A DNA stretch of 64,000 nucleotides. Source: an uncultured Actinomycetota bacterium (GTDB taxonomy: Bacteria > Actinomycetota > Actinomycetes > Mycobacteriales > Mycobacteriaceae). The translations under genes were made by a program, and so were the position numbers. Under the pieces are notes generated by a model. It was not told the DNA's origin. It saw only the letters and a list, made by a program, of their open reading frames with translations, and searched no databases. Shown piece by piece: positions 47,903 through 63,857 of the stretch. The first letter of the stretch is position 1, and each line of letters begins with the position of its first letter. Location of the stretch: positions 535,029 through 599,028 of the forward strand of contig CAWCJU010000004.1 in NCBI GenBank assembly GCA_963796035.1. The letters run 5' to 3'.

Positions 47903-49027
47903 ATGAAGCTAGGGCAGGTTTTCGATCCGCGAAGTAATGCGCTGAACGCCTGGCGGTTAGCGCTCGCGGCCGAAGTCATCTTCTGGCACACCTACCCGGT
48001 TCGGGGTCACCTCCCGTCGCTGCGGGCCGTTCTGCAGCTTCTACTTTCAATAGGAGTGGACGGGTTCTTTGCGATCTCGGGATTCCTCATCACCGCGAGT
48101 TGGTTGAGCAACCCGAAGCTGCGTGCCTACCTCGCCGCGCGGGCCCTGCGCATCCTGCCCGGCTTCTACGTCTGCATGATCGTGACGGCCTTCGTGTTCG
48201 CCCCGCTCAGTGTGGCGATCCAAGGCGGTTCGGCGGCCAGGCTCCTGTTCTCGTTCGCGCCGTTCGAGTACGTGCTGAAAAACATCGCGGTCATGTGGCT
48301 CAAGCCCGACGTCGGCGGCACTCCGTTCAACATTCCGAATGCGGGCATCTGGAACGCTTCGCTGTGGTCGCTCTTCTGGGAAATAATGTGCTATCTGGTC
48401 GTCGCCGCCATCGGCGTGGCCGGCCTGGCCAACCGTAGGTGGGTGTCCCCGCTGATTTTGGTGGTGGCGGCGATCGGGGCATCGATGATGCCGCCCGTCA
48501 CCTTCCCCGAGGTGTTCAATCGGCCGTCGGGCAACGTGGGCATCGTCCTCGTCTTCATGGCGTGCCGGGCCGCGATCATGTTTGCCGCGGGAGCTCTGCT
48601 CTACCAATGGCGCGACGTGATTCCCGCTCGCTGGTCGCTGGTCGCGGTGAGTGTGGTCATCGTGGCGCTGGCCGGCCAACTGCCGGACTACCGGGTGGTT
48701 GCCGCCGTTCCGCTGGCCTACGCCGTCGTCGTCTCCGGGTCCCTGCTGCACAACAAGCGATTGAGGTTGCGCACAGACCTGTCGTACGGCATGTACATCT
48801 ACGCGTATCCGACCCAGCAGCTGCTCGCGGTGCTCGGGCTGCTCAGCCTCAATCCAATCGTGTTCTGTCTGAGCGTGGCGCTGGCCACCCTGCCGCTGGC
48901 CGCGGCGAGTTGGTTCCTGGTCGAGAAGCCGGCGAGGTCGCTCAAGGCGCGACTCAAACAGAGGTCCGCCGGCTCCCGCGAGCAAGCGGCCATGGCGATG
49001 CCACCGGAGATGCCCGGTGCCGTTTAG
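47903..49027 (+). CDS. Acyltransferase family 3 (OafA-like) membrane O-acyltransferase
   Basis: NALNAWRL, GVDGFFAISGFLI, RALRILP, NASLWSL..E, DLSYGMYIY, SWFLVEKP. Confidence 0.92.
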   Translation: MKLGQVFDPRSNALNAWRLALAAEVIFWHTYPVRGHLPSLRAVLQLLLSIGVDGFFAISGFLITASWLSNPKLRAYLAARALRILPGFYVCMIVTAFVFAPLSVAIQGGSAARLLFSFAPFEYVLKNIAVMWLKPDVGGTPFNIPNAGIWNASLWSLFWEIMCYLVVAAIGVAGLANRRWVSPLILVVAAIGASMMPPVTFPEVFNRPSGNVGIVLVFMACRAAIMFAAGALLYQWRDVIPARWSLVAVSVVIVALAGQLPDYRVVAAVPLAYAVVVSGSLLHNKRLRLRTDLSYGMYIYAYPTQQLLAVLGLLSLNPIVFCLSVALATLPLAAASWFLVEKPARSLKARLKQRSAGSREQAAMAMPPEMPGAV

Positions 49028-49185
49028 CCACAACCGTTGCAGTTTCAGGACGCAGGACGCGGCGCTACCGGCAAAGAATCGCGGGCGGCGAGCTGATCAA
49101 GGCCACCGCCCGCATCGGCGTCCATCGACCTTCGACCCGTACGATGGCGCCGATGACGAGTGGTGGGTAGGCGGGTGGAGGCTGG

Positions 49186-50322
49186 ATGAAGCTAGGGCAG
49201 GTATTCGATCCACGAAGGAACGCGCTCAACGCACTTCGGTTGGCGCTGGCGGCCGAGGTGATGCTCTTCCACTCCTGGCCCACCACCGGCCACATGCCGC
49301 CGAAGGAGACCCTGCAGCTGTTCTTCTCGGTAGGTGTTGACGGGTTTTTCGCAATCTCCGGCTTCCTCATCACCCGGAGTTGGCTCACCGACCCCCGCCT
49401 GCGCGACTATCTCGCCGCCCGCGCCCTGCGCATCCTGCCCGGCTTCTACGTCTGCCTGATCGCGACCGCTTTCGTCTTCGCCCCGCTGAGTATGGCGATC
49501 CAAGGCGGTTCGGCCGCCAAGCTGCTCGGGTCCATTGCCCCGATCGAGTACGTCCTGAAAAACAGTGCGATCGCGTATCTGCAGCCCACTATCGACGGCA
49601 CGCTGCACGGTGCGCCGGGTGGACCCGCCTGGAACGGTTCGATGTGGTCGTTGATCTGGGAACTGCTGTGCTACCTCTTCGTTGCCGCTATCGGCGTGGC
49701 GGGACTGGCCAATCGCCGCTGGGTATCCCCCGCGGTTTTGGTACTGGCAACCCTGGGGGCGTTGGTCCTACCGCCCCTGACATTTCCCGGGGTATGGACC
49801 ATTCCGCAGCTTGCGGTGCGCTCGGCCATCATGTTCGCGGCCGGAGCCGTCATGTACCAGTGGCGAGACGTCATTCCCGCCCGATGGTCGCTGGTCGCGG
49901 TCTGCATTGTCATCGTGGCGGCGGCCGGGGTCCTGCCCGACTACCGGGTGGTCGGTGCGCTTCCGCTGGCCTACGCCGTCATCGTGTCGGGCTCCCTGCT
50001 CAAGAGCGAACGGCTGAGGCTGCGCACCGATCTGTCCTACGGCGTCTACATTTACGCATTCCCGACCCAGCAATTGCTGGCCATCAGTGGACTCGCGACG
50101 CGCCTGCACCCTGTGCTGTTCTTTCTCGTCTCGGTGGCGACCACCCTGCCCCTGGCCGCGGTGAGCTGGTTCCTCATCGAGAAACCCTCGATGTCCCTCA
50201 AACGCCGGCTTCGGATCAAGTGGTCGGCTCCCGTCGCGTCCAGTTCCGACGAGGCCGGGCCTGTCAGCACGCCTGGCGCCCTGGCTGAACAGCCGGCTCC
50301 GGAGGCCCCGGGCGCCGCCTAG
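49186..50322 (+). CDS. Acyltransferase family 3, paralog 2
   Basis: Same motif set; near-identical N-terminus MKLGQVFDPR. Confidence 0.92.
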   Translation: MKLGQVFDPRRNALNALRLALAAEVMLFHSWPTTGHMPPKETLQLFFSVGVDGFFAISGFLITRSWLTDPRLRDYLAARALRILPGFYVCLIATAFVFAPLSMAIQGGSAAKLLGSIAPIEYVLKNSAIAYLQPTIDGTLHGAPGGPAWNGSMWSLIWELLCYLFVAAIGVAGLANRRWVSPAVLVLATLGALVLPPLTFPGVWTIPQLAVRSAIMFAAGAVMYQWRDVIPARWSLVAVCIVIVAAAGVLPDYRVVGALPLAYAVIVSGSLLKSERLRLRTDLSYGVYIYAFPTQQLLAISGLATRLHPVLFFLVSVATTLPLAAVSWFLIEKPSMSLKRRLRIKWSAPVASSSDEAGPVSTPGALAEQPAPEAPGAA

Positions 50323-50372
50323 CCGCGAGCAGACCTGCCCACAGCATCGGGGCCTACCATGGGCGAACGCCG

Positions 50373-51461
50373 ATGGCTCTCGGGCAGGTATTCGATGCGC
50401 GTCGCAATGCGCTGAATGTATGGCGGCTGGTCCTCGCCGCCCAGGTGATGTTGTGGCATTGCTGGCCCATTACCGGCCGCATGCCAGCGGCCCCCACTCG
50501 CCAACTTCTGTTTTCGATAGGGGTCGACGGGTTCTTCGCGATCTCGGGATTTCTCATCACCCGCAGCTGGCTCGAAGAACCGCGACTGCGTGAATTCTTC
50601 ACCGCGCGCGCCCTTCGCATCCTCCCCGGCTACTACGTCTGCCTGATCGTGACAGCCCTCGTCTTCGCCCCGCTCAGCCTGGCGATCCAAGGCGGTGCGG
50701 CAACCAAGCTACTTTTCTCGTCCGCACCGCTCGAATACATTCTCAAAAACAGTTCGGTCGCCTACGTCCAGCTGAATGTCGGTGGAACCCCAGGCGGGAT
50801 TCCATATTCTCGACTCTGGAACGGCTCGCTGTGGTCCCTCATGTGGGAAGCGCTCTGCTATCTCGCGGTCGCCGGTATCGGCGTCGCCGGGCTGGCCCAC
50901 CGGCGGTGGATTTCTCTGGCGATTTTGGCACCGTGCGTACTCGCTGCGACGTTGTTGCCCCCGCTTACAGTTCCCGGGAACTGGACCTTCGCGCAGTTGG
51001 CCGTTCGCTCGGCCATCATGTTCGCGGCGGGAGCCGTCATATATCAATGGAAAGAGGTGATCCCCGCCCGGTGGTCGCTCGTCGCGGTCAGCATCGGCAT
51101 CGTCCTGGCCTCCAGCCGGCTGCCCGATTACCGGGTGGTCGCCGCCCTCCCACTCGCCTACGCCATCATTGTGTCCGGGGCCCTTCTGAAGAGCAGCCGC
51201 CTGAGGCTACGCACGGATTTGTCCTACGGCGTCTACATTTACGCGTTCCCGGCCCAGCAGTTGCTGGCCGTGATGGGGCTCGCCCATCTGCAACCCGTCG
51301 CGCTCTTTCTCGTCGCCGCGGTGGCCGTACTGCCGCTGGCCGCGGCAAGCTGGTTCCTCATTGAAAAGCCCTCGATGTCACTCAAACTCCGGCTCAAGCG
51401 ACGGTGGTCTGGCCGCCTCGCAGCCGAAGTCGGCCACCAAGGCCCCACAACACCACCGTGA
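50373..51461 (+). CDS. Acyltransferase family 3, paralog 3
   Basis: Same motif set; MALGQVFDARRNALN. Confidence 0.92.
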   Translation: MALGQVFDARRNALNVWRLVLAAQVMLWHCWPITGRMPAAPTRQLLFSIGVDGFFAISGFLITRSWLEEPRLREFFTARALRILPGYYVCLIVTALVFAPLSLAIQGGAATKLLFSSAPLEYILKNSSVAYVQLNVGGTPGGIPYSRLWNGSLWSLMWEALCYLAVAGIGVAGLAHRRWISLAILAPCVLAATLLPPLTVPGNWTFAQLAVRSAIMFAAGAVIYQWKEVIPARWSLVAVSIGIVLASSRLPDYRVVAALPLAYAIIVSGALLKSSRLRLRTDLSYGVYIYAFPAQQLLAVMGLAHLQPVALFLVAAVAVLPLAAASWFLIEKPSMSLKLRLKRRWSGRLAAEVGHQGPTTPP

Positions 51462-51786
51462 GCGCCTCCGCCACCACGCTGATGACCGCGTACGGTGCCG
51501 GCTCCCAGCCCCGTTCGGCGAAGCCGGACAGACCAACGGTTCGAGACAGCGCGAACGCGACCAGCGAACCGGCGGCCACCGCGGCGCCGGCCCAGCGCAG
51601 CCACGCGGGACCGCCGACCAGGATCAGCAACGCGATCGCGAACGACACGCTGGCCTGGGCCATGAATGCCGCGCCGATCTGCCGAACGTGTTGGTAGCCA
51701 TGCACATAGAGGTAGGCGTGGCTGGCGGCGCTGGCGGTCAACGACGCAGCGAGGCCGATACGGACCAGGATGCTCGTCAAAGTCAT
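51394..51786 (-). CDS. Small four-helix membrane protein of unknown function
   Basis: Hydrophobic segments, SHAYLYVHGY, SRTVGLSGFAERGW; ATGA-coupled to the phosphoesterase. Confidence 0.75.
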   Translation of the reverse strand: MTLTSILVRIGLAASLTASAASHAYLYVHGYQHVRQIGAAFMAQASVSFAIALLILVGGPAWLRWAGAAVAAGSLVAFALSRTVGLSGFAERGWEPAPYAVISVVAEALTVVLWGLGGRLRLRGGQTTVA

Positions 51787-52715
51787 TGCAGTGTCGTCTC
51801 CTTCAAGGCCAGGGCGGCTGCTCCCCTGGTGTAGCTGACCTCACGGATGCCCAGCGCGTCACGCAGCTTGCCGGCCGGCAGCGTCACCGGCTTGGGCGCG
51901 GGCCCGTCGCCCGGTCGCGGCAGCGGGTAAGCGGTGGTGGTGCCGCTGTAGAACGTGACGTTGTCCTCCGTTTTGGAGAACAGTTGGTGGACATGGCCGT
52001 TCAGGCACGTGACCGAGGAGAAGCGGCGCAGGTAGCTCAGCGCCTGGGTGGCATCGTCGGTGCCCCAGCCCCATTGCGGGTACATCGCGAACAGCGGAAT
52101 GTGGCTGAACACGATGATGGGGGTATCACTGGAAAGACGCGCGACGTCCTTCTTGACGAACTCCAACTGATCGGCACCGAGATGGCCGAGCTTGCGCAGA
52201 TTCAACGTGTTGACCAATGCGATCAGGTGTACGCCGGCGATGTCAAGGCTGTACCACCCGTCGCCAACGGAGCCGGCGCCGAACGTGTTTCGGTACTTCT
52301 GGCCCGCGTCATCGATCGAGTCGTGCTCCCCCGGCACGGTGAACACGTGCGGCGTCTTGAGACCACTCATCATCTGCTTGACCTGGTCGAACTGCTCCGG
52401 GCTGGACAGATGGGTGAGGTCACCGGTGTGGATGACGAAATCCGGTGTGTAGCCGAGGTTGTTGACCTGATCGATCGCGTGGCTGAACGTCCCGGCGACG
52501 TCCGGATTGGGCGCCCCGGTGAAACCGAGATGGCTGTCGCTGATTTGGGCGAACCGCAGGGTGGGCCGGGCCACCGTGTGCTGCGCCGCCGCCTGGCCCG
52601 CCACATGCGAGATGACCTCGCCGCCGGTCACCGCGAATCCCACCGCCGCTCCGAACCATGCCGTGTGCCGGATGAGCTGGCGCCGCGTCATGGAGTTCGA
52701 GTCACCGCGCGTCAT
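51783..52715 (-). CDS. Tat-exported metallophosphoesterase (CpdA/Icc-like)
   Basis: TRRQLI twin-arginine signal; SDSH, GDLTH, GEHD, FSHIP, NGHVH motifs. Confidence 0.9.
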   Translation of the reverse strand: MTRGDSNSMTRRQLIRHTAWFGAAVGFAVTGGEVISHVAGQAAAQHTVARPTLRFAQISDSHLGFTGAPNPDVAGTFSHAIDQVNNLGYTPDFVIHTGDLTHLSSPEQFDQVKQMMSGLKTPHVFTVPGEHDSIDDAGQKYRNTFGAGSVGDGWYSLDIAGVHLIALVNTLNLRKLGHLGADQLEFVKKDVARLSSDTPIIVFSHIPLFAMYPQWGWGTDDATQALSYLRRFSSVTCLNGHVHQLFSKTEDNVTFYSGTTTAYPLPRPGDGPAPKPVTLPAGKLRDALGIREVSYTRGAAALALKETTLQ

Positions 52716-53110
52716 CCCGTCACCACCACGGTGCCGCGCATCATCGGGTGGATCGAGCAGACGTAGTCAAAAGTCCCGGCGGTGGAAAAGGTGTGGGTGA
52801 ACGTGGCCCCGGTTCCCATGCCGGGAGAGTGGAACGAGCCGTCGCTTGCGGCCACCGTATGGGGTTCTTCGTCGCGGTTGGTCCACGTGACGGTGGTCCC
52901 GGCGGGCACCGTCAGGGTCACCGGCGCGAACGCGAAGCCGTCGATGCTGACCTGGTCGCCGCGCACCGGCGCCGCCGGTGCGGTGACCGACATCTCGGTT
53001 GTGGGCGCGGCGGTGGTCGCCACCGGCCGTGGCCGGGAGCAACCGGCCAATAGCAACACACCCACGGCCGCCACGGCGACCACATGTCTTCGAAGCATGC
53101 GGATATCCAT
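52712..53110 (-). CDS. Cupredoxin (amicyanin/plastocyanin-like) lipoprotein
   Basis: Lipobox LLAGC; VTWTNRDEEPHTV; YVCSIHPMMRG type-1 copper ligands. Confidence 0.9.
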   Translation of the reverse strand: MDIRMLRRHVVAVAAVGVLLLAGCSRPRPVATTAAPTTEMSVTAPAAPVRGDQVSIDGFAFAPVTLTVPAGTTVTWTNRDEEPHTVAASDGSFHSPGMGTGATFTHTFSTAGTFDYVCSIHPMMRGTVVVTG

Positions 53111-53127
53111 GCCCAGAGATAGGGCGG

Positions 53128-53137
53128 CGGGTTACAC
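53128..53137 (-). promoter_or_regulatory. Putative ECF -35 element GTGTAACCCG upstream of the cupredoxin gene
   Basis: Identical 10-mer also upstream of the ECF sigma gene. Confidence 0.55.
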
Positions 53138-53140
53138 CGC

Positions 53141-53848
53141 TCAGGCCGGCCGCTCGGGGCGCGGCGGCGCGAATACCTCGATGACCCCGTTGACCTCACG
53201 AACCATCAATGCGGGCAACGGCTTTGGCGCTATCGGCAACTGATGGGTAAGCACCTGGCCGCCTGGTGAGAACGACGTGGTGTGGCAGGGGCAGCGCAGC
53301 GTGTCGTCGGGTGCGTCGAACCACAGCTTGCAGCCCTGATGGGTACACACCCCGGAGATCGCCTGGATTTTGCCGTCGACGCGGCGGACGAATCCGGTCA
53401 CCGAGCCGAGGTCGAAGGCGTGCATGACGCCGTCGGGCACATCCGCGCCGGCCGCGACGCGCTGCCAGCTGCCGTCGTTGGGCGTGAGTTGCCCGGCGGC
53501 GACCCCGGGAATACGGCCGTCGCCGGGTGAGCCCGCGATCAGCGCGCGATCGACGGACACCGCGGCGACCGCCGCGGTGGCGGCGGCCGACGTGCCGACG
53601 ATGACCTGGCGACGCGTGCTGCCGCGTCCACGCGCCGTTTTTGTTGGCGCGCCCGACATCTGCTCGGCGATACGGTGGTGTAGATCGGTGACGAATTCCT
53701 GGCGCGGCGCGTCACCACCCTCGCGAGCCGCGCGCAGCTCGATGGCCGTGCGAAGCTGTGCGGCCTCGAAGTCGTCGGGCGCGAACGGCCTGGGCCGGCG
53801 CCCTCGCAGCAGATCGTCGACGTAACGTCGCAGCCCTCGCGCATTCAT
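53141..53848 (-). CDS. Rieske [2Fe-2S] domain protein with N-terminal helical domain and internal twin-arginine/TM segment (putative anti-sigma factor)
   Basis: CTHQGC and CPCH Rieske motifs; STRRQVIVG followed by an Ala/Val stretch; ATGA-coupled to the sigma gene. Confidence 0.85.
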   Translation of the reverse strand: MNARGLRRYVDDLLRGRRPRPFAPDDFEAAQLRTAIELRAAREGGDAPRQEFVTDLHHRIAEQMSGAPTKTARGRGSTRRQVIVGTSAAATAAVAAVSVDRALIAGSPGDGRIPGVAAGQLTPNDGSWQRVAAGADVPDGVMHAFDLGSVTGFVRRVDGKIQAISGVCTHQGCKLWFDAPDDTLRCPCHTTSFSPGGQVLTHQLPIAPKPLPALMVREVNGVIEVFAPPRPERPA

Positions 53849-54396
53849 GGCTGCCCCCCATCGTTGACCTGCGCCGCCAGCCGCAGGGCGCGGTGCTGGA
53901 GCACTTTGGCGTTGGACACACTGATCCCGAGTTCCGCGGCCGACTCCTTGATTGAATTACCCCGCAGGAAGCGCGATTCCAGAATCTGGCGGTAGCGGTC
54001 CGGCAGGCTGTCCAAAACCCGGGCAACACGCTGCGGCGCGGTGCTGATCGCGTCCTGGCTGTCGGCCGGCTGTTCGACGTCCTCGATGGAGGTTATCTCT
54101 CGTCCCAGCGTCTCGCGCCAGTGCGCTGCCAGCACCGTCCTGGCCGTCGCCCGCAGGTACGCGCGCACCTCGGCGACGCTCGCGGTCAGCCGCAGCGGCC
54201 GCAGCGCGGCGAGGAACACCTCGGCGGTGAGGTCTTCGGCGTCGGTTTGGTTGCCGACGCGCGCGAACAGCGTGCGGTACACCCAGGTCATGTTGTCCTG
54301 GTATACGGCCTCCCAGCTCGGGTAGCCGTCGTCATGGCCACGGTCGGGCACCGCGCGCAGGGGTCGCGGGCCGAAGGGTTCGTTTCTTGCCGCCAC
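53845..54396 (-). CDS. ECF RNA polymerase sigma factor
   Basis: Region 2 DAEDLTAEVFLAAL; region 4 LPDRYRQIL...ELGISVSNAKVLQHRAL; GAAGGAGG RBS. Confidence 0.92.
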   Translation of the reverse strand: MAARNEPFGPRPLRAVPDRGHDDGYPSWEAVYQDNMTWVYRTLFARVGNQTDAEDLTAEVFLAALRPLRLTASVAEVRAYLRATARTVLAAHWRETLGREITSIEDVEQPADSQDAISTAPQRVARVLDSLPDRYRQILESRFLRGNSIKESAAELGISVSNAKVLQHRALRLAAQVNDGGQP

Positions 54397-54425
54397 ATGC
54401 CTCCTTCACCCGATGAATATCGACT

Positions 54426-54435
54426 CGGGTTACAC
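54426..54435 (-). promoter_or_regulatory. Putative autoregulatory ECF -35 element GTGTAACCCG
   Basis: Identical to the motif at 53128-53137. Confidence 0.55.
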
Positions 54436-54438
54436 GGG

Positions 54439-55863
54439 TCAGGGCGCCGCGAGCGCGGCTTCGGCTGCCATCAGCTGATCGAGCTTGGTGGCGGTGGCGG
54501 AGAACACGGACTTGGCGATGCTCAGAATTCGATCGCGCACCCGGGGCTTCGCCGAGGCCGACGGCAGCAGGTGCCCGATCAAATGGCCGAACAGGTCGAG
54601 GCGGGCCGCGGACAACCACGACATCAATTCCGGGTCATCGAACCAGCTCAGCTGGTTGCTGTAGTCGGCCAGCGCCAGCCGCAACCAGTCGAGGTCGGTG
54701 TCCGGATGCGGCAGGGGCACGCACAGCTCGTTTTTCACGGCGTCGTCGGAGTATGCGGCTTCGACGTGGGCGATCAGCGCGGCGCTGAAGATCTGTTGGC
54801 AGCCGCGCACACTTTGCAGCGTGATGCTCTCGGAATCGAAAATGGGTGTGGGGGGCCGCTTTTCGGCCCCGTCCGCGGTGCAGTCGATGTACAGCTCGTC
54901 GCCGCTGACCGCCACGGTGCCACCATCGAGGACCATCCTGCCCGCCTCGATGGCACGCAGGTGGCCCATGCGCACCACGTCGGTGATGCGGCGCAGCTGC
55001 TCGAGTTCGAGCCGGGTGACGGTCGCGCATCGGTACATGGCGGGCCGGACCGCCGGATCGATCCGCAACAGCACGCCGGCATCCTCGAGACGCGCGAACA
55101 GATCCTGCACCGAAGCCGCGTCGTTGATCGCGCGAAGTTGTGCGGTGAAGCCGGCCTTGATCTTGTCGGCGAACACCGTGCCGGGCTGCATCGTCTCGCG
55201 GTCCAGCAGCCAGGAATCGCGCGGCATGATCCAGGTCAGCCGATCCGGCCCGACGCCGTGACTCAGCAACCACAGGCACGTATCGATGCCGGTCTTGCCG
55301 GCCCCGACGACGACGTAGCGCTCATGCGCGGCGAGCCCGGGCAGGTCGTTGGGCGGCACGCATGCGACGCCGGCGGCGACCTGGTACGGGGCGCGGCGCA
55401 TCGCCGGAACCGTGACCCGCATGTAGGTGGCGTCGACGACGCGGCGCGTCACGCGCACGGCGTGGTCGGCGCCGCCCAGCGTGCGAAACCGGCCGTCACC
55501 GCGGTATTCGCTCATCGGGAAATAGCTGACCCGGCCGGTCGGCAACCACTCCCGGCGCATGATGCGGTCGTAGTACGCGCAGATCTCGCCGGCGGTCGCC
55601 AATTCGTAAAGGCCGCGGTTCCAACCTACTTGGTCGACGGTGTCGCTACCCAGCCTCGACGAGTTGACCCCGTAGAACGCCGAGGGCTGATGCAGCCGCA
55701 CGAACGGGTAGGCCATGGTCCAGTGCCCACCGGGCGCATGGTGTCGGTCCACCACCACCACGCGGGCCTCCGTCGCTGAGGTCTCAGTGACCAGCGTGTC
55801 GATGAACGCCATACCCATGGCGCCCGCGCCGACCACCAGGTAATCGGCCTCGATGGTGTACAT
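54439..55863 (-). CDS. FAD/NAD(P)-binding oxidoreductase
   Basis: VVGAGAMG, PGGHW...YPFVRLHQPS, VVGAGKTG. Confidence 0.88.
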   Translation of the reverse strand: MYTIEADYLVVGAGAMGMAFIDTLVTETSATEARVVVVDRHHAPGGHWTMAYPFVRLHQPSAFYGVNSSRLGSDTVDQVGWNRGLYELATAGEICAYYDRIMRREWLPTGRVSYFPMSEYRGDGRFRTLGGADHAVRVTRRVVDATYMRVTVPAMRRAPYQVAAGVACVPPNDLPGLAAHERYVVVGAGKTGIDTCLWLLSHGVGPDRLTWIMPRDSWLLDRETMQPGTVFADKIKAGFTAQLRAINDAASVQDLFARLEDAGVLLRIDPAVRPAMYRCATVTRLELEQLRRITDVVRMGHLRAIEAGRMVLDGGTVAVSGDELYIDCTADGAEKRPPTPIFDSESITLQSVRGCQQIFSAALIAHVEAAYSDDAVKNELCVPLPHPDTDLDWLRLALADYSNQLSWFDDPELMSWLSAARLDLFGHLIGHLLPSASAKPRVRDRILSIAKSVFSATATKLDQLMAAEAALAAP

Positions 55864-55909: not shown

Positions 55910-57010
55910 CTATGCCACCCGTGCTTCGACCACGCTCAGCGGTGAAGCGGTTTGAACCACCCGCGTCATCTGCAGTCCGGCTCGGCCCAGTAGGGCTTGG
56001 TACTCGTCGGCAGTGCGTTCGCGGGCCCCCAAATTCAGTAGCATCTCCAAATCCACCCATTTCCCCGGGAAGTCACGGTCGTGCTTCGGGATGACCAATT
56101 CGATCAGGAGCACCGCCGCTCGGGGGCCGGCCGCCGTGCGCACATTGCGCAGGATCTGAACCGCCTTGTCGTCGGGCCAGTCGTGGAGGATGTTCTTGAG
56201 GATGTAGGCATCCCCACCCGCGGGAACGCTGTCAAAAAACGACCCCTCGGCGATACGTACCCGGTTGCCGACGTGGTGCTCGCCCAACAGCCTTGGGGCG
56301 TCCGCTACTACCCGCGGCAGGTCGTACAGGACGCCGCGCGAAGCCGGTGCCCCCGCCAGGATGGTGGCCAACAGCGGGCCGTGTCCACCGCCCACGTCGA
56401 CGATCGTGGAGTAGGTGCTGAAATCGTAACCAGCGACCACCGATCCGTCCGTGAGCTCCGAAACACTCGTCATCGTCTGGTTGAAGAGTTCGGCAAGCTC
56501 GTGCTGCCCGGCGAAGTAGTCGAAGCTCTCCATGCCGCGCAATGTCGGGACGACCGTATTTCCGGTTCGGATCGAATCCACCAGCAGGGTCCAGCGTTCG
56601 CGCTGCTCGGCCGACCCATAGAACTGCGCCGCGCAACTCATCGAGATGGGTGCGTCTGAACGCAGGGTGGCGGCAAGGGAATTCAGCTCATAGCGTCCGT
56701 CCCGCCGATGTCGGAAGATGCCCTTGCCAATCAAGGCCCGCAGCAGCCGACGTAACGCATCCCCGTCCGCGCCTACCCGGGTGGCCAGCTCCTCGAGCGG
56801 CAGGGGGCCGTCGGAGAGCGCGTCGGCGACGCCGAGTTGGGCCGCCACAGTGATCGCCTGCGACGTCCAGGTTGCCACGATCATCTCCATCATTGCCGCC
56901 GGCGCGGGGATGCATCGTTGATGGAGCCGATGCAGGTAGTGGCGCATCCGCTCAACAGCGCGGGCCAGCCTGGCGGGTGGCACCATGGGCGACTTGCTCA
57001 CGTTGTTCAT
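55910..57010 (-). CDS. SAM-dependent O-methyltransferase (COMT-like, with dimerisation domain)
   Basis: VDVGGGHG, GSFFDSVP, LKNILHDWPD, RERT. Confidence 0.93.
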   Translation of the reverse strand: MNNVSKSPMVPPARLARAVERMRHYLHRLHQRCIPAPAAMMEMIVATWTSQAITVAAQLGVADALSDGPLPLEELATRVGADGDALRRLLRALIGKGIFRHRRDGRYELNSLAATLRSDAPISMSCAAQFYGSAEQRERWTLLVDSIRTGNTVVPTLRGMESFDYFAGQHELAELFNQTMTSVSELTDGSVVAGYDFSTYSTIVDVGGGHGPLLATILAGAPASRGVLYDLPRVVADAPRLLGEHHVGNRVRIAEGSFFDSVPAGGDAYILKNILHDWPDDKAVQILRNVRTAAGPRAAVLLIELVIPKHDRDFPGKWVDLEMLLNLGARERTADEYQALLGRAGLQMTRVVQTASPLSVVEARVA

Positions 57011-58269
57011 GTGGCATCGGCAAGACGGGTAGTCGTCGAGGCCCCGAGGTCTCGGCTGGTCGCCGCGGATATCCGGCCATGACTCACCGCACGCATAAAC
57101 GTTGTGAGTGCACGGGTCGTGAGACGGTCTGGGATCATCGCCGCCGGCCTCAGCACGGCCTCACTGCGGGCCACTTGCAGCGTGGTCACGAAAGACACGG
57201 CCCTGACCTTGCGTCGCCTGGTGTTCTCGTACCAGCGCAGCGCGCCCGACAGATCACGGCTGCCGCAGTGCCCTTTCCAACCTCTTTGGAGATCCGAAAG
57301 CGCTCTGCGCAAGACCATCGTGTCGAGCAGCGCTTGATTGGTTCCTTGCGCCAGGGTGGGCGGCATCGTGTGTGCGGCATCACCGAGCAACGTCACCACG
57401 CCTTGCCCGGACGCGGGGATCGGATGCCGAAAATGCGGGAACGGCGACCGGGCCAGGTCCTCGTCGGTCAGCGTCGCCAGCACTCGGTCGACCGAGTCGG
57501 ACCATCCATTGAAGTGCGACCGGATCATCTCGATCGGACGCTCGGGTCTGACGTAGTCGGGCGACCATGGCAAGTCGAACCACCACTGCACATCCGAACC
57601 TCCGGCCGGCCACAGGCCGAGGTTTCCGCGCTCGCCGATGATCATTTGCGCGACGTCCTTGTCGGCGATGCGGGGAAGGGTGATCAGCCCCTGCCAGCTG
57701 CACCAGCCGGTCGGCTGCGCGGGTGGCGCGCCAACGATGTCCCGAACCACCGAGTGCAGGCCGTCCGCACCGATCAGCAGATCTCCGTCGGCCCGGCCGC
57801 CGTCTTCGAAATCGAGGCGGACCCCGTTGTGGGTAGCGACGGCCCCGACCGCACGGGCATTGCAGCGGATGCGCTCGGTCGGAAAGCCTTCCAGCAGCCT
57901 CTCCAGCACGACTCGACGGGGGACCATCCGAACTGGCGCGCCCAGTCCGTCCGCAATCGCTGCCAGGTCGACCGTGGTGACCGGACGACCCCCTGCCGTC
58001 ACGACCCGCAGGGTGGAAAGCAGCTGACCGGCCCCATCCATATCGACCCCCAGCTGGTCGAGAACCGTTGCGCCGTTGGACCAGATGGTGACGGCTCCGC
58101 CGGCCGCCTCCACGTCCGACCGCTGCTCGAAGACGGTGACGTCATGTCCATCACGCAATAACCCGCTGGCAATGGAAACGCCGCCCACGCCGGCGCCGAC
58201 GACGAGGACCCGAAGCGACCGAGTCGATCGCGCGATCGGCACGTACCGGTGCTTCAAGTGACAGCTCAC
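57007..58269 (-). CDS. FAD-dependent monooxygenase (aromatic hydroxylase type)
   Basis: VVGAGVGG, LIGADGLHSVVR, LLGDAAHTMPPTLAQGTNQA. Confidence 0.9.
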   Translation of the reverse strand: MSCHLKHRYVPIARSTRSLRVLVVGAGVGGVSIASGLLRDGHDVTVFEQRSDVEAAGGAVTIWSNGATVLDQLGVDMDGAGQLLSTLRVVTAGGRPVTTVDLAAIADGLGAPVRMVPRRVVLERLLEGFPTERIRCNARAVGAVATHNGVRLDFEDGGRADGDLLIGADGLHSVVRDIVGAPPAQPTGWCSWQGLITLPRIADKDVAQMIIGERGNLGLWPAGGSDVQWWFDLPWSPDYVRPERPIEMIRSHFNGWSDSVDRVLATLTDEDLARSPFPHFRHPIPASGQGVVTLLGDAAHTMPPTLAQGTNQALLDTMVLRRALSDLQRGWKGHCGSRDLSGALRWYENTRRRKVRAVSFVTTLQVARSEAVLRPAAMIPDRLTTRALTTFMRAVSHGRISAATSRDLGASTTTRLADAT

Positions 58270-58291
58270 GTCAGCTCTCTTTCACGCGGTA

Positions 58292-59332
58292 TCAGCCCGA
58301 ATTCGCCAGTGCGGCCAATACCGCTTGAGTGGACGTGCGGCTTCCGACGGTGAGCCGGGCAGCGCCGTCAGGGTAGTAGCGGGCCTTCAGCGCGGTGTCG
58401 CCGAATACCTCCCGCCAGGGTCGCCCGACGGCCGGTAGATAAACGAAGTTGGCATGCCCGTCGGTGGTGTACACGCCCATTGCCCGCAGGCGCCGGGACA
58501 GGTAATCCCGCTCGCCGGTGATTCGCAGAATGCGTTGCCGCAACTGGTCTTCGGCATCGTAGGACGCTGCGACCGCCGCCAAGCTGGTAATGCTCATGCC
58601 AAACGGCAATTGCATCCCCCACAGTATGGTGGCCAGTTCTGGTGAGGCGAAGCCGTAGCCGATACGAAGTCCGGCCAACCCATAGGCCTTCGAGAATGTC
58701 CGCAATACAACGACATTCGGAAAACGTCCGACCAGATCCGGTCCGTCGATGCGGTGCTGGGGCGCGACAAACTCGATGTAGGCCTCGTCGAGTAACACGA
58801 CCGTGTCGTCTGGTACCCGCCGCAGGAATCGCTGCACATCCGCGACAGGTTCCAGGGTGCCGGTGGGATTGTGCGGCCGACACAGGACGACCACGCCGGC
58901 GCCCGCCGCCGCATCGGCCATTGCCTCCAAGTCGTGGTGACCGTGCTCGTCGAGCCCAACGGTGACCGATTCCAGGCGGGCCATCTGGGCGAAGATCGGA
59001 TATCCGTCGAAAGTCGGCTCGCTCAGCACAATGCGGTCACCGGGCCGCGTCACCGCGTGCAGGACCTGCATCACCACTCCACTCGCACCCGCTCCCAGCA
59101 CGACCTGCTGTTCGCAGACCCCGATGTGGCCCGCGATCAAGCGGCGCAACCGTTCGGGCAGGAATTCCGGATACCGGTTTGCGACATCGATCGATCGGAT
59201 CAGTGCCGACCTCACTGCCGGCAGCGGTGGAAACGGGTTTTCGTTGAGCGACAACGCGAATGGATCGGTCGCGCTGGGCAGGGCGTCGAGGATCTCCGTG
59301 GCGACGGGACTTGCCTGAAGTTTCGGTAACAT
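58292..59332 (-). CDS. PLP-dependent aromatic amino acid aminotransferase (HisC/Pat-like)
   Basis: LSLNENP, NRYP, PHNPTG, LDEAYIEF, RTFSKAYGLAGLRIGY. Confidence 0.92.
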   Translation of the reverse strand: MLPKLQASPVATEILDALPSATDPFALSLNENPFPPLPAVRSALIRSIDVANRYPEFLPERLRRLIAGHIGVCEQQVVLGAGASGVVMQVLHAVTRPGDRIVLSEPTFDGYPIFAQMARLESVTVGLDEHGHHDLEAMADAAAGAGVVVLCRPHNPTGTLEPVADVQRFLRRVPDDTVVLLDEAYIEFVAPQHRIDGPDLVGRFPNVVVLRTFSKAYGLAGLRIGYGFASPELATILWGMQLPFGMSITSLAAVAASYDAEDQLRQRILRITGERDYLSRRLRAMGVYTTDGHANFVYLPAVGRPWREVFGDTALKARYYPDGAARLTVGSRTSTQAVLAALANSG

Positions 59333-60351
59333 CAGCGTGCTCCGCCCCAGCGGAACGCCGCCGCACCCGCGAAGTCGCCGGCGTGCGCGAAGGCGGCCAT
59401 CATCACGACGTCACCTGTGTTGACCCGACGGTCGGATATCGCACGGTCGAGGTTGATCGGGATCCCCGCCCCGAACAGGTTGCCGTATTCATCGAACGTG
59501 TCGAGATGCCTGGTTTCGGGTACCTCGAGCGCTTCGCGCCAGTTGCGCAGGAACACCCGGTTCGGCTGATTGGTGACCAGCAGGTCGATGTCTTTGGACG
59601 ACAGGCCGATTCGATCGCAGACGGCTAGCGCCACTTCGGGGACCTGCCGATTGCCCCGAGCGAGTACCTTGGCGATTTTGGTCTCGGTGAACCCGATGCA
59701 TCCCTCACCGGGGCCGGGCTGCCACCATTTGCGGGGCGGGTCGATGGCGAGCGTCATATCGCCGGCGTATTCGCCGTAGGTGCGGCACTCGATGTCGAGA
59801 ATCGGTGATTCGTCTGAGACGGTGACCAATCCGACGGCGGCGCCATCGCCGGGCACCGACGACTGCGCCTTGCGCCGCACGCCGGGCTGATCGAAGATCT
59901 GGCCGGCGGCGTTCTGGGCGATCGCGATCAGCGCCGTGCTGCCCTGCCCCGTGGCAAGCAGCTGACGGGCGACTTTGAGCGCCAGCACGAACGCTGCGCA
60001 ACCGCCATTGTGCAGATCCAGCACCCAATTGGGCCGCATGCCCAGGCGGTGCGCGATGCCGCCGCCGCCGCCGTAGAACGGCATGTCGGGCATTTGGGCG
60101 TGGGTGATCAGCACGTCGACGTTCGCAATGACGTCTTGGCCGTGTCGTTCGATCAGGCCGTGTGCGGCTCGCTCGATCATGTCGATCGTGGTTTCGTCCG
60201 GCCCGACATGATGACGGAACTGTGGTGCGCGAAACATCAGGTTGGCCGCGAGGTCGTCCGACCCGGCGAAGTTCGCGTAGTAACCGGCGCCGATGGGTTC
60301 GCCGGGCAGATACGTGGAGACGTCGGTCAGGCTGACAATGGGCTCGTTCAT
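59332..60351 (-). CDS. 3-oxoacyl-ACP synthase III (FabH-like) family enzyme
   Basis: HNGGCAAF (catalytic Cys), PGDGAA, TNQPN, YGNLFGAG; start MNEPIV overlaps the upstream stop (ATGA). Confidence 0.9.
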   Translation of the reverse strand: MNEPIVSLTDVSTYLPGEPIGAGYYANFAGSDDLAANLMFRAPQFRHHVGPDETTIDMIERAAHGLIERHGQDVIANVDVLITHAQMPDMPFYGGGGGIAHRLGMRPNWVLDLHNGGCAAFVLALKVARQLLATGQGSTALIAIAQNAAGQIFDQPGVRRKAQSSVPGDGAAVGLVTVSDESPILDIECRTYGEYAGDMTLAIDPPRKWWQPGPGEGCIGFTETKIAKVLARGNRQVPEVALAVCDRIGLSSKDIDLLVTNQPNRVFLRNWREALEVPETRHLDTFDEYGNLFGAGIPINLDRAISDRRVNTGDVVMMAAFAHAGDFAGAAAFRWGGAR

Positions 60352-61019
60352 GATGTACTCATCCATTCGGGCTTGATCGGCAGTCCGTTGCGGTGGCGGT
60401 ATTCGGCGATTGTCTTGAGGTTGTTGAGCTCCAGCCCATGACCGGCACCGAACATGTCCCAGAAGTCGCCCACCCAGCCCGTGCGCTCTGCCGGTGCGGC
60501 GTCGGGATACGGGTTGTCGTCGTAGAACGGGTGACGGCAATTGGTCCACAACACGACGGAACCGGGCTTGTCGAGCAGCACCTGCGCGTCCAGGACCCGC
60601 ATCAGGTAGATCATCCACAAGTGCTTGCCCTGGTCCCAGGCGCAGTGGTAGTCGACGGTACGAGCCTGCGCATTGGCCACGGTGCGGGTGTAGATCTTGG
60701 TGTCCGGCAGCAACCGGTCGTAGGCCAACCAGAGTCCGGATTCCTCAGTGGGGGTGAAGTCTCGCAGGGTATAGGTCCACTCCTCGAGGCTGCGGGAGTC
60801 GGCCAGGTATTCGAACAGCTCGTCGGGCGGGCAGTCGACGTAGTCGTTTACCGTGCAGTACTGGCCGAAGACCTCGTCGTGCGGGTACACCGAGCGCATC
60901 TTGGCCATGAACATCGGGGCGGTCTGTTCCAAGGGCGAGGTCTCGATCCGCACCACTCCCTCGATCGGGCCCGTGGTGCCGCGATGCACGGCGATATCGT
61001 CAAGCGCTGGTATGGACAT
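60348..61019 (-). CDS. SRPBCC-like cyclase/aromatase (NzsI/CqsB2-like by context)
   Basis: CPPDELFEYLAD..SLEEWT START/SRPBCC-like start, VDYHCAWDQG, ELNNLKTIAE C-terminal helix. Confidence 0.75.
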   Translation of the reverse strand: MSIPALDDIAVHRGTTGPIEGVVRIETSPLEQTAPMFMAKMRSVYPHDEVFGQYCTVNDYVDCPPDELFEYLADSRSLEEWTYTLRDFTPTEESGLWLAYDRLLPDTKIYTRTVANAQARTVDYHCAWDQGKHLWMIYLMRVLDAQVLLDKPGSVVLWTNCRHPFYDDNPYPDAAPAERTGWVGDFWDMFGAGHGLELNNLKTIAEYRHRNGLPIKPEWMSTS

Positions 61020-62757
61020 GGGTTCTGCTCTCCTTTGGAGTTGTAATCTGGTTTTCGACAATGCTTTTGGTGGACTTGCCGTTCAGGAATGCCGCGAATG
61101 GCGGGATTTCGTCTGCGGAGCACTCGACGGTGACCACGGACGGACCGTCGACGGCCATTGCTCGTTCCAGCGCTGCGGGTAGTGCGTCGATGTCGGCCAC
61201 GTCGACCGAACACAGCCCGGGGAACATGCCCGCCAGACCGGCCCCCAGCTGGCTGGGAGCGAACCGGTTGTAGCTGTACAGGTCGTCGTAGAACAACTGC
61301 TCGCGGGTCACGCACATGGCGTGGGCATTGTTGTTGAACAGTACGAAAGTCACCGGAAGCCGGTACTGCACAGCGGTGTGCACCTCCATGCCGTGCATGA
61401 AGAATGCACCGTCCCCGGCGATCACCACGGTGCGCCGGCTAAGCCCGTTGCGCATCGCGCGGCCGAAGGCCATCCCGATACCGGCACCGAAGCTGTAGCC
61501 CATGCCGCCCATGCCGAGTGCAACCGCGAACCGACCGTCCCGGCGAACAGGGAGGAGATGGATTGCGGCTGCACCGGTGTTGCCGGCGTCGACGACGATG
61601 TCGGTTCCGTCGGGCAACACGCGATCGAGCACGACCATGGCATCGCGGTAGCGCACGCCCTTACCGGAGAACAGTGGTGGACAGAGTTCGGTGTCTGCAA
61701 CGAAATCGGGCACCCGCAGGCCCGTTGGCCGCCCTCGCCCGGACAACGCCCGGGTCAGCAACGTCAGGGATCTCCGCAGGTCTTCGGTGTGCACGTGCGT
61801 GCACGGGAGGTATGGGGGTGCCGATCCGATTGAGACCGTCCGCACCGCTGCGAGCGCGTCGTCGAGGCCGGTGCGGGCGGTCACCGACAGTCGGGTGCCG
61901 ACCACGAGGCACACGGCGCTGGCTGCCACCGCGTCGGCCACAGCGGGGTGGCCCATTACACCGGTCACCCCGAGCGCTGAGGACGAACCGGAACCTGGCG
62001 TTCCGGCAACATCTTTGGCGTCGGGCACACATGCTACCTGCGCGCGCAGCACGGCCCGTAGCTCCTCGAGCTCGGACCGAGCGTCATCACGAGCCACCTG
62101 CTCGCCGGCGATGATGGTGATAGGTCCAGCCGCTCGGCGCAGCGCACGCACAATCGCATGCGGATCACCGACGAGAGTCCCGGCGTGATCGAAGCCATGC
62201 CGACCATTACCGCCGTAACCGTTGACGCCGACCTGAGCCTGCTGAATATCCTTGGGCAGCAACAAAACTGCGGGGCCACCGGTTCGTGCCGCCGCTATAG
62301 CGCTGGGCAACGCCGCAACGATGTCGGAAGGTGTCACCATCCGCCGGCAGAAGACCGACACCGCGGAGAATAATGCCTCGGCATTCAATGAACCGTTGCG
62401 ACCACTGGTGTCTTGAAAGCTGCCCCGGCCGTCCATTGTGATCGCAGGCTGGCCCACCAGTGCCAACACCGGCACCCGGCTGGCCAATGATTCCCCAAGG
62501 CCTGGAATGAGATTGAGTGCGCCGCCGCCCGACGTCGCCGCCACCACACCCAAACCCGCGCCGCTGCGGCTGTACCCGTCGGCCATCGTGGCAGCGGAGA
62601 ACTCGTGCTTAGCCAACACCGCGGTGATGTCCGAATTGAAATATGCGGCGTCGTACAGATCCTCGATGTTGGCACCGTCGACGCCGAATATGTAGTCGCT
62701 GTCGGTTCTCGCGAGTTGCTCGACGATGTGGTCGACCACCCTGTGTTGCCTGGGCAT
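61000..62757 (-). CDS. Thiamine diphosphate-dependent enzyme (acetolactate-synthase-like acyloin synthase)
   Basis: IFGVDG, KHEFSAATMADGY, GGMGY, GDGAFFM...FNNN ThDP motif. Confidence 0.92.
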   Translation of the reverse strand: MPRQHRVVDHIVEQLARTDSDYIFGVDGANIEDLYDAAYFNSDITAVLAKHEFSAATMADGYSRSGAGLGVVAATSGGGALNLIPGLGESLASRVPVLALVGQPAITMDGRGSFQDTSGRNGSLNAEALFSAVSVFCRRMVTPSDIVAALPSAIAAARTGGPAVLLLPKDIQQAQVGVNGYGGNGRHGFDHAGTLVGDPHAIVRALRRAAGPITIIAGEQVARDDARSELEELRAVLRAQVACVPDAKDVAGTPGSGSSSALGVTGVMGHPAVADAVAASAVCLVVGTRLSVTARTGLDDALAAVRTVSIGSAPPYLPCTHVHTEDLRRSLTLLTRALSGRGRPTGLRVPDFVADTELCPPLFSGKGVRYRDAMVVLDRVLPDGTDIVVDAGNTGAAAIHLLPVRRDGRFAVALGMGGMGYSFGAGIGMAFGRAMRNGLSRRTVVIAGDGAFFMHGMEVHTAVQYRLPVTFVLFNNNAHAMCVTREQLFYDDLYSYNRFAPSQLGAGLAGMFPGLCSVDVADIDALPAALERAMAVDGPSVVTVECSADEIPPFAAFLNGKSTKSIVENQITTPKESRTHVHTSA

Positions 62758-62786: not shown

Positions 62787-62814
62787 AACACGGCCTGCGG
62801 GTGACTTCAGTTCA
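62787..62814 (-). promoter_or_regulatory. SigL-type promoter upstream of the biosynthetic operon
   Basis: Minus strand TGAACT-N16-CGTGTT versus recalled SigL consensus TGAACC-N16-CGTGTC. Confidence 0.65.
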
Positions 62815-62828
62815 CCCGGGTTCGAAAT

Positions 62829-63569
62829 TTACAGCGAACGCTCCAACAGCACTTGGCCGTCGTCGGCTGAAACCACTTGCACAGCAGCGATTTGCTCGAC
62901 CCGTGTCGAAGTGCTGCCAATGGGGGTCGCCGCGTGGCCCGGATCCGCCACCCAGGTTGCCATTCGAATGTGGCTACCGTCGCGACCTACCATTACCATC
63001 GCCAGCGTGTCGTGATGGGCGTTCAGCGGGGCCAGGCAGACGCAGTTCATCGAGATGGACGTTCCCCATTGCTGGCTGCTGAGCGAAACCGTCGAGGCCA
63101 GCCTGTTCGTCCCGACCTGCGCCATCGGCTGAACCGGCACGCCCGCCAGCGGCGGCGTGGGCACCGATGTCGGGTAATTGCCCGCCACGCCGACGAGGAC
63201 ACCGATCGCCAGCACCGCGGCTGCGGCCGCCCCAGCCGTCCACGTCACGATGCGGGACCGGCGCCGCCGCCAGCTCACCGCGGCCAGCAGCGACGGCAGC
63301 AACTCGCCGGGCAGCAATGGTTCAACGCCACTGCGGTCGTCGATCGCCGCCAAATCGTTGCGATTCAGCTGCAACAGGAGAGCCGGCATGCCGCCGAGCT
63401 CGCCGACGGCGCTGGCGCACCACGGGCAGCCGGTCATGTGCGCTTCGAATTCGCGCCGCTCGGCGGACGACAATGATCCCAGCACGTATGCGGCATCCCA
63501 CGTCGTGAACTCGTCATGCCCGGATTCCTCACCGCCACACGGCGTTCCGGGCAGCCATACCTGCATCAT
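62829..63569 (-). CDS. rslA: RslA-like zinc-binding membrane anti-sigma factor (extra copy)
   Basis: WDAAYVLGSLS..ERREFEAHMTGCPWC (HxxxCxxC), TM helix after WRRRRSR, CVCLAP, DGQVLLERSL closely follow Rv0736. Confidence 0.88.
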   Translation of the reverse strand: MMQVWLPGTPCGGEESGHDEFTTWDAAYVLGSLSSAERREFEAHMTGCPWCASAVGELGGMPALLLQLNRNDLAAIDDRSGVEPLLPGELLPSLLAAVSWRRRRSRIVTWTAGAAAAAVLAIGVLVGVAGNYPTSVPTPPLAGVPVQPMAQVGTNRLASTVSLSSQQWGTSISMNCVCLAPLNAHHDTLAMVMVGRDGSHIRMATWVADPGHAATPIGSTSTRVEQIAAVQVVSADDGQVLLERSL

Positions 63570-63832: not shown

Positions 63833-63857
63833 ACGATAGAAGTGCCTGTTCGGTTCA
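63833..63857 (-). promoter_or_regulatory. SigL-type promoter upstream of the sigL remnant/rslA
   Basis: Minus strand TGAACC-N16-CGT. Confidence 0.65.

Follow-up and report, generated by a model that had tools for sequence, protein, structure and literature searches.

Here, we describe six co-oriented genes of a mycobacterial genome that on balance probably encode a SigL-controlled pathway from tryptophan to a lipocarbazole, with hydroxylation and O-methylation of the product. The genes lie in a 64,000-nucleotide stretch of DNA (hereafter, "the window") from an uncultured Actinomycetota bacterium of the family Mycobacteriaceae (NCBI GenBank assembly GCA_963796035.1, contig CAWCJU010000004.1, positions 535,029 to 599,028 of the forward strand). 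All six open reading frames (ORFs) are intact and on the minus strand, at window positions 55910–62757. Four of them form a core comprising a thiamine diphosphate (ThDP) enzyme, a cyclase, a KAS III-like condensing enzyme (KS), and an aminotransferase. This core probably resembles the known carbazole core in its working, yet it stands outside the characterized clade of CqsB2, CbzE, and their kin. Genes, residues, clade, distribution, promoter motif, and co-occurrence were computed here; substrates, product, and function are what we infer. In the order of transcription, the six genes are:

61000–62757, minus strand: ThDP-dependent carboligase, NzsH/CqsB3-like; 585 aa; Pfam TPP N/M/C domains; Glu52 and the GDG..NN motif intact
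60348–61019, minus strand: cyclase-aromatase, CqsB2/NzsI-like, of the second clade; 223 aa
59332–60351, minus strand: KS, CqsB1/NzsJ-like; 339 aa; Pfam ACP_syn_III; Cys118, Asn261 (usually His), and Asn291
58292–59332, minus strand: aromatic aminotransferase, CqsB7/NzsD-like; 346 aa; pyridoxal phosphate lysine Lys215
57007–58269, minus strand: class A flavin adenine dinucleotide (FAD) monooxygenase (aromatic hydroxylase), likely a tailoring enzyme; Pfam FAD_binding_3; HpxO-like, below cut-off
55910–57010, minus strand: class II S-adenosylmethionine-dependent O-methyltransferase, likely a tailoring enzyme; Methyltransf_2 plus dimerization domain; DxGGG and His276 kept

The core enzymes and their clade

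The cyclase is the key ring-closing enzyme of known carbazole pathways, and an earlier, sequence-only reading of the window had likened the protein encoded at 60348–61019 to it. This protein is indeed a clear homologue of CqsB2, a carbazole synthase. CqsB2 was its only sequence match at E ≤ 1 among 177,635 PDB sequences (E = 9.5e-52), and its identity to CqsB2-type proteins is 43%; searches of Pfam and NCBIfam gave no match. The AlphaFold model of the cyclase (pLDDT 92) has a Bet v1/SRPBCC-like fold, and Foldseek ranked CqsB2 (6IPV) first, with an E-value of 7e-20 versus 2e-6 for the runner-up. A review lists Tyr144, Tyr172, His206, Glu209, and Glu105 as the catalytic residues of CqsB2 (PMC7466098). 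These align with Tyr138, Tyr166, His194, Glu197, and Asp101 of the window protein, meaning that four of the five are identical. The same four are invariant in an alignment of 87 sequences from the characterized clade (clade I), 97 from the mycobacterial family, and 19 others from the second clade (clade II), and 34 positions, many of them aromatic, are common to all three groups. Natural KAS III–cyclase fusion proteins occur among distant relatives (P0276, P0360, and P0363), an arrangement that would suit the passing of an unstable intermediate from one enzyme to the other.

The remaining core enzymes were compared with those of locus L102, a stand-in for the carquinostatin (cqs) cluster: its cyclase shares 98% identity with P0430, a protein identical to CqsB2, and the locus has a prenyltransferase, a NUDIX isomerase, and a P450. 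Bit scores against L102 and against the PDB were computed for one common database size. Against its L102 counterpart, with which it shares the family motifs, the ThDP enzyme reaches 253 bits (34% identity); the best PDB entry (BbmA) gives 171 bits. For the KS, the corresponding values are 145 bits (28% identity) and 70 bits (the best FabH in the PDB), and for the aminotransferase they are 262 and 182 bits. The aminotransferase shares 44% identity with the CqsB7-like L102 enzyme and 34% with the Pat paralogue of the same genome. A quick 19-row tree placed it with the CqsB7-like enzymes of L102 and L103, apart from the genome's own Pat and HisC (SH-aLRT 90). Neither of the sequence findings that would have refuted the sequence-only reading occurred: the cyclase resembles CqsB2, and the ThDP enzyme scores 176 bits where the NCBIfam cut-off for IlvB is 538 and is nearest to the carbazole-type enzyme. 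Pfam supports the domain assignment for five of the six proteins. The KS keeps Cys118 and Asn291 of its catalytic triad; the histidine, present in L102–L104, is replaced by Asn261 in the window enzyme and by asparagine in the 13 clade II enzymes displayed.

Cyclase trees of 93 rows (quick) and 35 rows (careful) place CqsB2, CbzE, and the Streptomyces cattleya, Sorangium, and cyanobacterial proteins apart from clade II, with support of 100/100. Clade II includes proteins from Mycobacterium, Nocardia, Rhodococcus, Gordonia, Williamsia, Tsukamurella, and Pseudonocardia, as well as many Streptomyces-type loci, and the KS tree also shows a deep split from the characterized clade. Within a genus taken as Streptomyces (g84), 37 of 401 genomes have a cyclase homologue, four at 61–98% and 33 at 42–48% identity to CqsB2; 20 of these 37 loci were fetched for inspection. 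For comparison, the enzymes of the carbazomycin (cbz) cluster are 57–68% identical to those of the neocarazostatin (nzs) and cqs clusters (PMC11610953). Gene order differs as well. The window reads ThDP>cyclase>KS>aminotransferase, and most clade II loci read ThDP>cyclase>KS, whereas four Streptomyces-type loci with CqsB2-clade cyclases read KS>cyclase>ThDP. The order of transcription is thus the opposite of that in these four loci, not the same as had been supposed, and a transcription order identical to nzs/cqs is ruled out. The clade II cores of some other actinomycetes (L085, L116, L117, and L120) are joined to an acyl carrier protein (ACP), a cyclopropane-synthase-like methyltransferase, an FAD oxidoreductase, and a short-chain dehydrogenase/reductase (SDR), which hints at carbazoles with modified lipid chains.

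Because the window lies in a sister clade without a characterized member, the carbazole product has to be argued for indirectly. The best chemical pointer comes from Tsukamurella. Lipocarbazoles are 1-alkyl-2-methyl, 3-oxygenated antioxidants from Tsukamurella pseudospumae (PMC7466098, PMC11387468, PMC11350554). In a Tsukamurella tyrosinosolvens record, we found a flavodoxin-like gene followed by genes for a ThDP enzyme, a cyclase, and a KS, with a TrpB2-type gene two genes on. Its cyclase is 66% identical to that of the window and 42% to that of L102, and the KS and ThDP enzyme are 49% and 39% identical to their window counterparts. The two cyclases fall in one Mycobacteriales branch, with support of 100/100. 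A genus (g5) can be taken as Tsukamurella because the proteins of one of its loci (L082) are 88–96% identical to the T. tyrosinosolvens record. Among its 21 genomes, 20 have one cyclase each, all of clade II (63–70% identical to the window protein and, in full-length matches, 42–47% to CqsB2), and no CqsB2-type cyclase was detected in any of the 21. Should the lipocarbazole producer resemble the other members of its genus in this respect, then carbazoles are what clade II makes. Two mycobacterial loci bear on the acyl chain: L025 (1403–5325) and L035 (2072–5900) each have a second, divergent cyclase and KS together with an ACP and an acyl-AMP ligase, facing away from the main cluster, and this pairing suggests fatty-acyl donors and a variant that has an acyl chain of its own. 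The sequence-only reading, which proposed a carbazole or a related lipid, is supported in part, with the Tsukamurella lipocarbazoles, rather than carbazomycin, as the closest chemical pointer.

Distribution, promoter, and surroundings of the locus

The sequence-only reading treated the cluster as a feature of this strain. Instead, it is a genus-wide locus, often adjoining sigL. The cyclase was detected in 281 of 400 sampled genomes of the same genus (~70%; E ≤ 0.001) and in 106 of 150 genomes that are at least 95% complete (E ≤ 1e-60). In order-level sampling, 22 of 32 genomes of the window's own family had it, versus 3 of 268 others. Named carriers include the M. avium complex, M. xenopi, M. 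riyadhense, and M. phlei, and M. smegmatis is a likely further one (locus tags MSMEG_1488–1491). Published tables give no Mycobacterium tuberculosis homologue for MAP4209, a gene syntenic with the cluster (PMC4319475, PMC2806251). In the small genomes G139, G167, and G215 (3.2–3.3 Mb), only weak cyclase matches in several pieces were seen (E ~1e-35 to 1e-41), which looks like gene decay. The 79 closest loci, drawn from the best 80 of 584 matches and some of them partial, have a KS in 79 cases, a ThDP enzyme in 78, an aminotransferase in 73, a monooxygenase in 28, and an O-methyltransferase in 24, and the four-gene block is conserved across genera. In 53 long loci, the genes around the cluster include those for an anti-sigma factor (47), a sigma factor (33), map (29), secY (27), and adk (22). 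In the window's own genome, secY-adk-map-sigL-rslA lies ~9–12 kb upstream of the cluster, on the same strand and contig.

Two features immediately upstream of the ThDP gene point to SigL:

62790–62814, minus strand: SigL-type promoter motif TGAAC-N17-CGT, 57 nt upstream of the ThDP start
62829–63569, minus strand: paralogue of the RslA-like zinc anti-sigma factor (Pfam zf-HC2), directly upstream of the ThDP gene; its own TGAAC-N17-CGT motif is at 63833–63857

The motif agrees with the published SigL consensus, TGAACC (−35) and CGTGTC (−10) (PMC2703886). Across the 79 loci it precedes the ThDP gene in 67 cases; it also precedes the monooxygenase gene in 17 of 28, but none of 83 KS genes or 75 aminotransferase genes. 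The spacer is 17 nt in all 83 sites counted. A genome-wide scan found seven sites above 20 bits versus none expected, although the matrix was trained on relatives of the same promoter, which accounts in part for the window site ranking first. The motif also occurs before sigL, with 17.4 bits, a score in the range of chance sites (>16 bits: 25 observed, 15 expected), and before two type III polyketide synthase (PKS)–ICMT operons of this genome, at sites that reach ≤14 bits in the matrix scan and were found only with a looser pattern. No such motif was found at the Tsukamurella locus, and it was found at one of the 20 Streptomyces-type loci scanned.

Expression data exist for an apparent counterpart. 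MAP4208–4211 of M. avium subsp. paratuberculosis are annotated as ilvB, hypothetical, fabH, and pat. A rhodanine drug raised their expression 6–7 fold, in parallel with that of sigL, pks10, and mpt53 (PMC2806251), and in a furA mutant their expression was 7–10 fold lower (PMC4319475). We equate these genes with the window cluster by synteny with locus L073, and not by the sequences of the tagged genes. The SigL regulon otherwise contains lipid (type III PKS) and envelope genes (PMC3544749, PMC2806251).

The gene junctions are tight, as the sequence-only reading had noted. The ThDP and cyclase genes overlap by 20 bp, the cyclase and KS genes by 4 bp (ATGA), the KS and aminotransferase genes by 1 bp, and the monooxygenase and O-methyltransferase genes by 4 bp; the only gap, of 22 bp, separates the aminotransferase and monooxygenase genes. 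In relatives such as L003, a separate SigL motif and a small ORF precede the monooxygenase gene. Because this stretch is missing from the window, as it is from L001, all six window genes stand behind one promoter, and the block is likely a single SigL-controlled operon. The small ORF itself, of ~40 codons with a strong ribosome-binding site, lies between the aminotransferase and monooxygenase genes (L003, ~12,780–12,930; also L002, L020, and L029), and its stop directly adjoins the first codon of the monooxygenase gene; the window and L001 have lost this ORF, of which a remnant is seen at window positions 58270–58291. Two further observations concern SigL. Outside the window, a single frameshift interrupts the rslA gene beside sigL in the present assembly (G000:C4 ~605,950–606,690; L122 9970–10690, minus strand). 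Either the assembly is wrong here, or the gene is truly lost and the intact paralogue at window positions 62829–63569 may stand in for it. At G000:C4 598,973–601,620 (L122 2974–5620, minus strand), genes for a flavin monooxygenase and an FAD_binding_4 oxidase lie downstream of a strong SigL-type motif; this monooxygenase family occurs in 46 fetched loci and may be a further SigL-controlled partner of the pathway.

The two likely tailoring genes are distributed differently from the core. In the set of 150 genomes at least 95% complete, drawn with the same settings for both genes, 60 encode a close homologue of the monooxygenase. All 60 belong to the 106 cyclase-bearing genomes; the 44 genomes that lack the cyclase have none. 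Of these homologues, 19 are within 15 kb of the cyclase gene and 10 are >100 kb away on the same contig (31 have no distance call), so the dependence of the monooxygenase on the core holds even where the genes are unlinked. Co-occurrence is less clean for the O-methyltransferase. At an identity of at least 66%, a cut-off chosen after the data had been seen, all 31 matches in 148 genomes are in cyclase-bearing genomes, while homologues at ≤65% identity also occur in genomes without the cyclase. Other lineages have other tailoring pairs: a monooxygenase with a UbiE-type methylase (L073 and L074), or a P450 with a different O-methyltransferase and an MmpL protein (L059 and L068).

The surroundings set the limits of the block. 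Its G+C content is 64.8% versus 67.2% for the genome, so the impression that the DNA is relatively A/T-rich holds weakly; it is no anomaly, because an equal or lower value is found in 11% of 740 genome tiles of the same size, and for the same reason there is no compositional sign of a foreign island. Together with the synteny with secY-adk-map-sigL, this rules out such an island. An oxidoreductase gene downstream (54439–55863) was considered as a seventh member and rejected: it occurs in 11 of the 79 loci, often away from the tailoring pair, and adjoins a module with an extracytoplasmic function (ECF) sigma factor and a Rieske protein. This co-oriented module (51394–55863) comprises the oxidoreductase, the ECF sigma factor, the Rieske-domain protein, a cupredoxin, a metallophosphoesterase, and a small membrane protein; several relatives have it too, separately from the tailoring genes. 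Further downstream, 47903–51461 encodes three similar tandem membrane proteins of 362–378 aa that by eye look like paralogues of the acyltransferase-3 family.

Proposed pathway and alternatives

By analogy with the cqs pathway, we propose the following steps. The aminotransferase would convert tryptophan to indole-3-pyruvate; the ThDP enzyme would couple this with pyruvate in an acyloin reaction; the KS, through Cys118, would carry out decarboxylative acylation from the cell's fatty-acyl pool; and the cyclase would close and aromatize the new ring. Hydroxylation and methylation could follow as optional steps. The product would likely be made in the SigL envelope-stress response, either as a redox lipid or to scavenge radicals in lipid-soluble form.

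Several points weigh against this proposal. (i) Identity to the carquinostatin-type enzymes of L102 is low (ThDP enzyme, 34%; cyclase, 43%; KS, 28%; aminotransferase, 44%), and a tree in which the window cyclase is forced together with CqsB2, CbzE, and two Streptomyces relatives, a group named after an earlier tree, is rejected (p-AU 1e-48). (ii) Some differences are fixed: Asp replaces Glu105 in 97 of 97 mycobacterial-family and 19 of 19 other clade II cyclases (and in 10 of 87 of clade I), clade II cyclases do not have a loop that is present in clade I, and the clade II KS reads NQPN where that of clade I reads HQPN. (iii) The aminotransferase family also accepts phenylalanine and tyrosine, and the best PDB match of the window enzyme is a putative phenylalanine aminotransferase. 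(iv) Neither the monooxygenase nor the O-methyltransferase is obligatory (28 and 24 of 79 loci, respectively), and the co-occurrence count for the former overstates independence because kin share genes. (v) The Tsukamurella link is at the level of the genus, drawn from T. tyrosinosolvens and the genomes of g5, and the Tsukamurella ThDP enzyme is only 39% identical to that of the window. (vi) The literature found reports no assay of a clade II enzyme.

Some of these points would fit the same chemistry acting on a different aromatic starter, phenylpyruvate or hydroxyphenylpyruvate. The cyclase would then close a naphthol, or hold an aryl-acyloin or diketone lipid, giving no carbazole, and the monooxygenase might activate the ring first. 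The deep splits in the cyclase and KS trees, the fixed differences near the active site, the Pat/phenylalanine type of the aminotransferase, and the absence of a trp gene from the window cluster all favor such a starter. However, an unactivated phenyl ring is a poor nucleophile, and 46 of the 106 cyclase-bearing genomes have no monooxygenase, indicating that the core has no need of it. The aromatic pocket and four catalytic residues shared with CqsB2 also argue against a non-indole starter, as does the lipocarbazole genus, which appears to carry only clade II, with TrpB2 beside it. We therefore regard a different starter as unlikely.

It is also improbable that the product is a short-chain, carbazomycin-like carbazole, made from tryptophan with an acetyl starter, converted to a catechol or quinone, and then O-methylated, which would act as a diffusible signal or antibiotic and not as an envelope lipid. 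As in cbz, the cluster has no ACP and includes an aminotransferase, a flavoprotein, and an O-methyltransferase, and some relatives add ABC or MmpL exporters. On the other hand, CbzE belongs to the other clade, the nearest chemically known genus produces long-chain compounds, and the other members of the SigL regulon are lipid (type III PKS) and envelope genes.

A ThDP enzyme and a divergent KAS III are the core of furanolide pathways too, and the KS shares only 28% identity with its CqsB1-like counterpart. A furanolide or butenolide pathway of the cyanobacterin type, in which a ThDP enzyme and a KAS III-like furanolide synthase do the work and the SRPBCC protein is an accessory, is nevertheless very improbable: the cyclase is inseparable from the other two (KS in 79 and ThDP enzyme in 78 of the 79 cyclase loci), it keeps four of the five CqsB2 catalytic residues, and the ammonia lyase and coenzyme A (CoA) ligase that the furanolide route needs are absent from the window cluster. 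Finally, that the block is a chance neighborhood of housekeeping or catabolic genes (ilvB, fabH, and hisC paralogues), as standard annotation would have it, is scarcely credible, for although acetolactate synthase, FabH, and histidinol-phosphate transaminase are the families that rank first, and MAP4208–4211 are annotated likewise in print (PMC2806251, PMC4319475), all three proteins miss the NCBIfam cut-offs (IlvB, 176 < 538 bits; FabH, 86 < 292; HisC, 234 < 277), the junctions overlap, the four genes stay together across genera, and the genome holds separate Pat and HisC paralogues outside the cluster.

The lipocarbazole pathway from tryptophan thus remains our preferred reading. If it is right, it gives a concrete chemical output for the SigL response of non-tuberculous mycobacteria, and it offers candidates for the genes behind the orphan lipocarbazoles and behind mono-oxygenated carbazoles, machinery that a 2020 review lists as unidentified (PMC7466098). 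A putative four-gene alkaloid-lipid pathway in ~70% of sampled species carries the labels ilvB, hypothetical, fabH, and pat, and the papers found assign no product to it, though mycobacterial lipids are heavily studied. A broader view, which we offer tentatively and with some doubt, is that clade II is the machinery for long-chain, mono-oxygenated carbazoles of the lipocarbazole/carazostatin type, and that most non-tuberculous mycobacteria, including the M. avium complex, may make such alkaloid lipids under SigL control, as an unrecognized class of antioxidants or redox carriers of the envelope, with M. tuberculosis having lost them.

Comparison with known systems

The type of chemistry is known; we did not find the clade, its genus-wide spread in mycobacteria, or the SigL link in print. 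No assignment of the pathway to mycobacteria was found in the literature, although the subscription papers on CqsB2, NzsH/I/J (2019), and lipocarbazole (2009), or their supplements, may list homologues. The string "Mycobacter" does not occur in the available text of the review (PMC7466098) or of the cbz paper (PMC11610953).

The closest chemical precedents are the carquinostatin (cqsB1–B3 and B7) and neocarazostatin (nzsH/I/J and D) clusters of Streptomyces, which share a homologous aminotransferase, ThDP enzyme, KAS III-like enzyme, and cyclase with the window, the cyclase being central. Unlike these clusters, the window belongs to a separate clade (identities of 34, 43, 28, and 44%), is transcribed in the opposite order, has Asn for His in the KS, and combines a SigL-type promoter with a chromosomal site conserved in most species of the genus. 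Of the other cqs/nzs components, the ACP, FabH, phytoene-synthase-like prenyltransferase, isopentenyl diphosphate isomerase, and P450 are all absent from the six genes, and the first three are also absent from the direct flanks. The cbz cluster of Streptomyces luteosporeus (PMC11610953) is similar to the window in having no dedicated ACP and in the aminotransferase, flavoprotein, and O-methyltransferase that accompany the core, but CbzE groups with CqsB2, and cbz adds an SDR and an FAD dehydrogenase.

Tsukamurella, the lipocarbazole genus (T. pseudospumae Acta 1857), shares the core clade, and its product type fits a cluster without its own ACP; the papers searched describe no gene cluster for the lipocarbazoles. 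The Tsukamurella locus differs in having a flavodoxin-like gene, an esterase gene, and TrpB2 in place of the aminotransferase, monooxygenase, and O-methyltransferase genes. The MAP4201–MAP4211 region of M. avium subsp. paratuberculosis is annotated as sigL, rslA, oxidoreductase, UbiE methyltransferase, ABC transporter, ilvB, hypothetical, fabH, and pat, with no pathway assigned in the available text (PMC2806251, PMC4319475). By synteny with L073, it has the four-gene core beside sigL-rslA, as in the window; unlike in the window, its tailoring genes lie upstream and its methyltransferase is of another family. The MAP operon is expressed and is co-induced with the SigL regulon.

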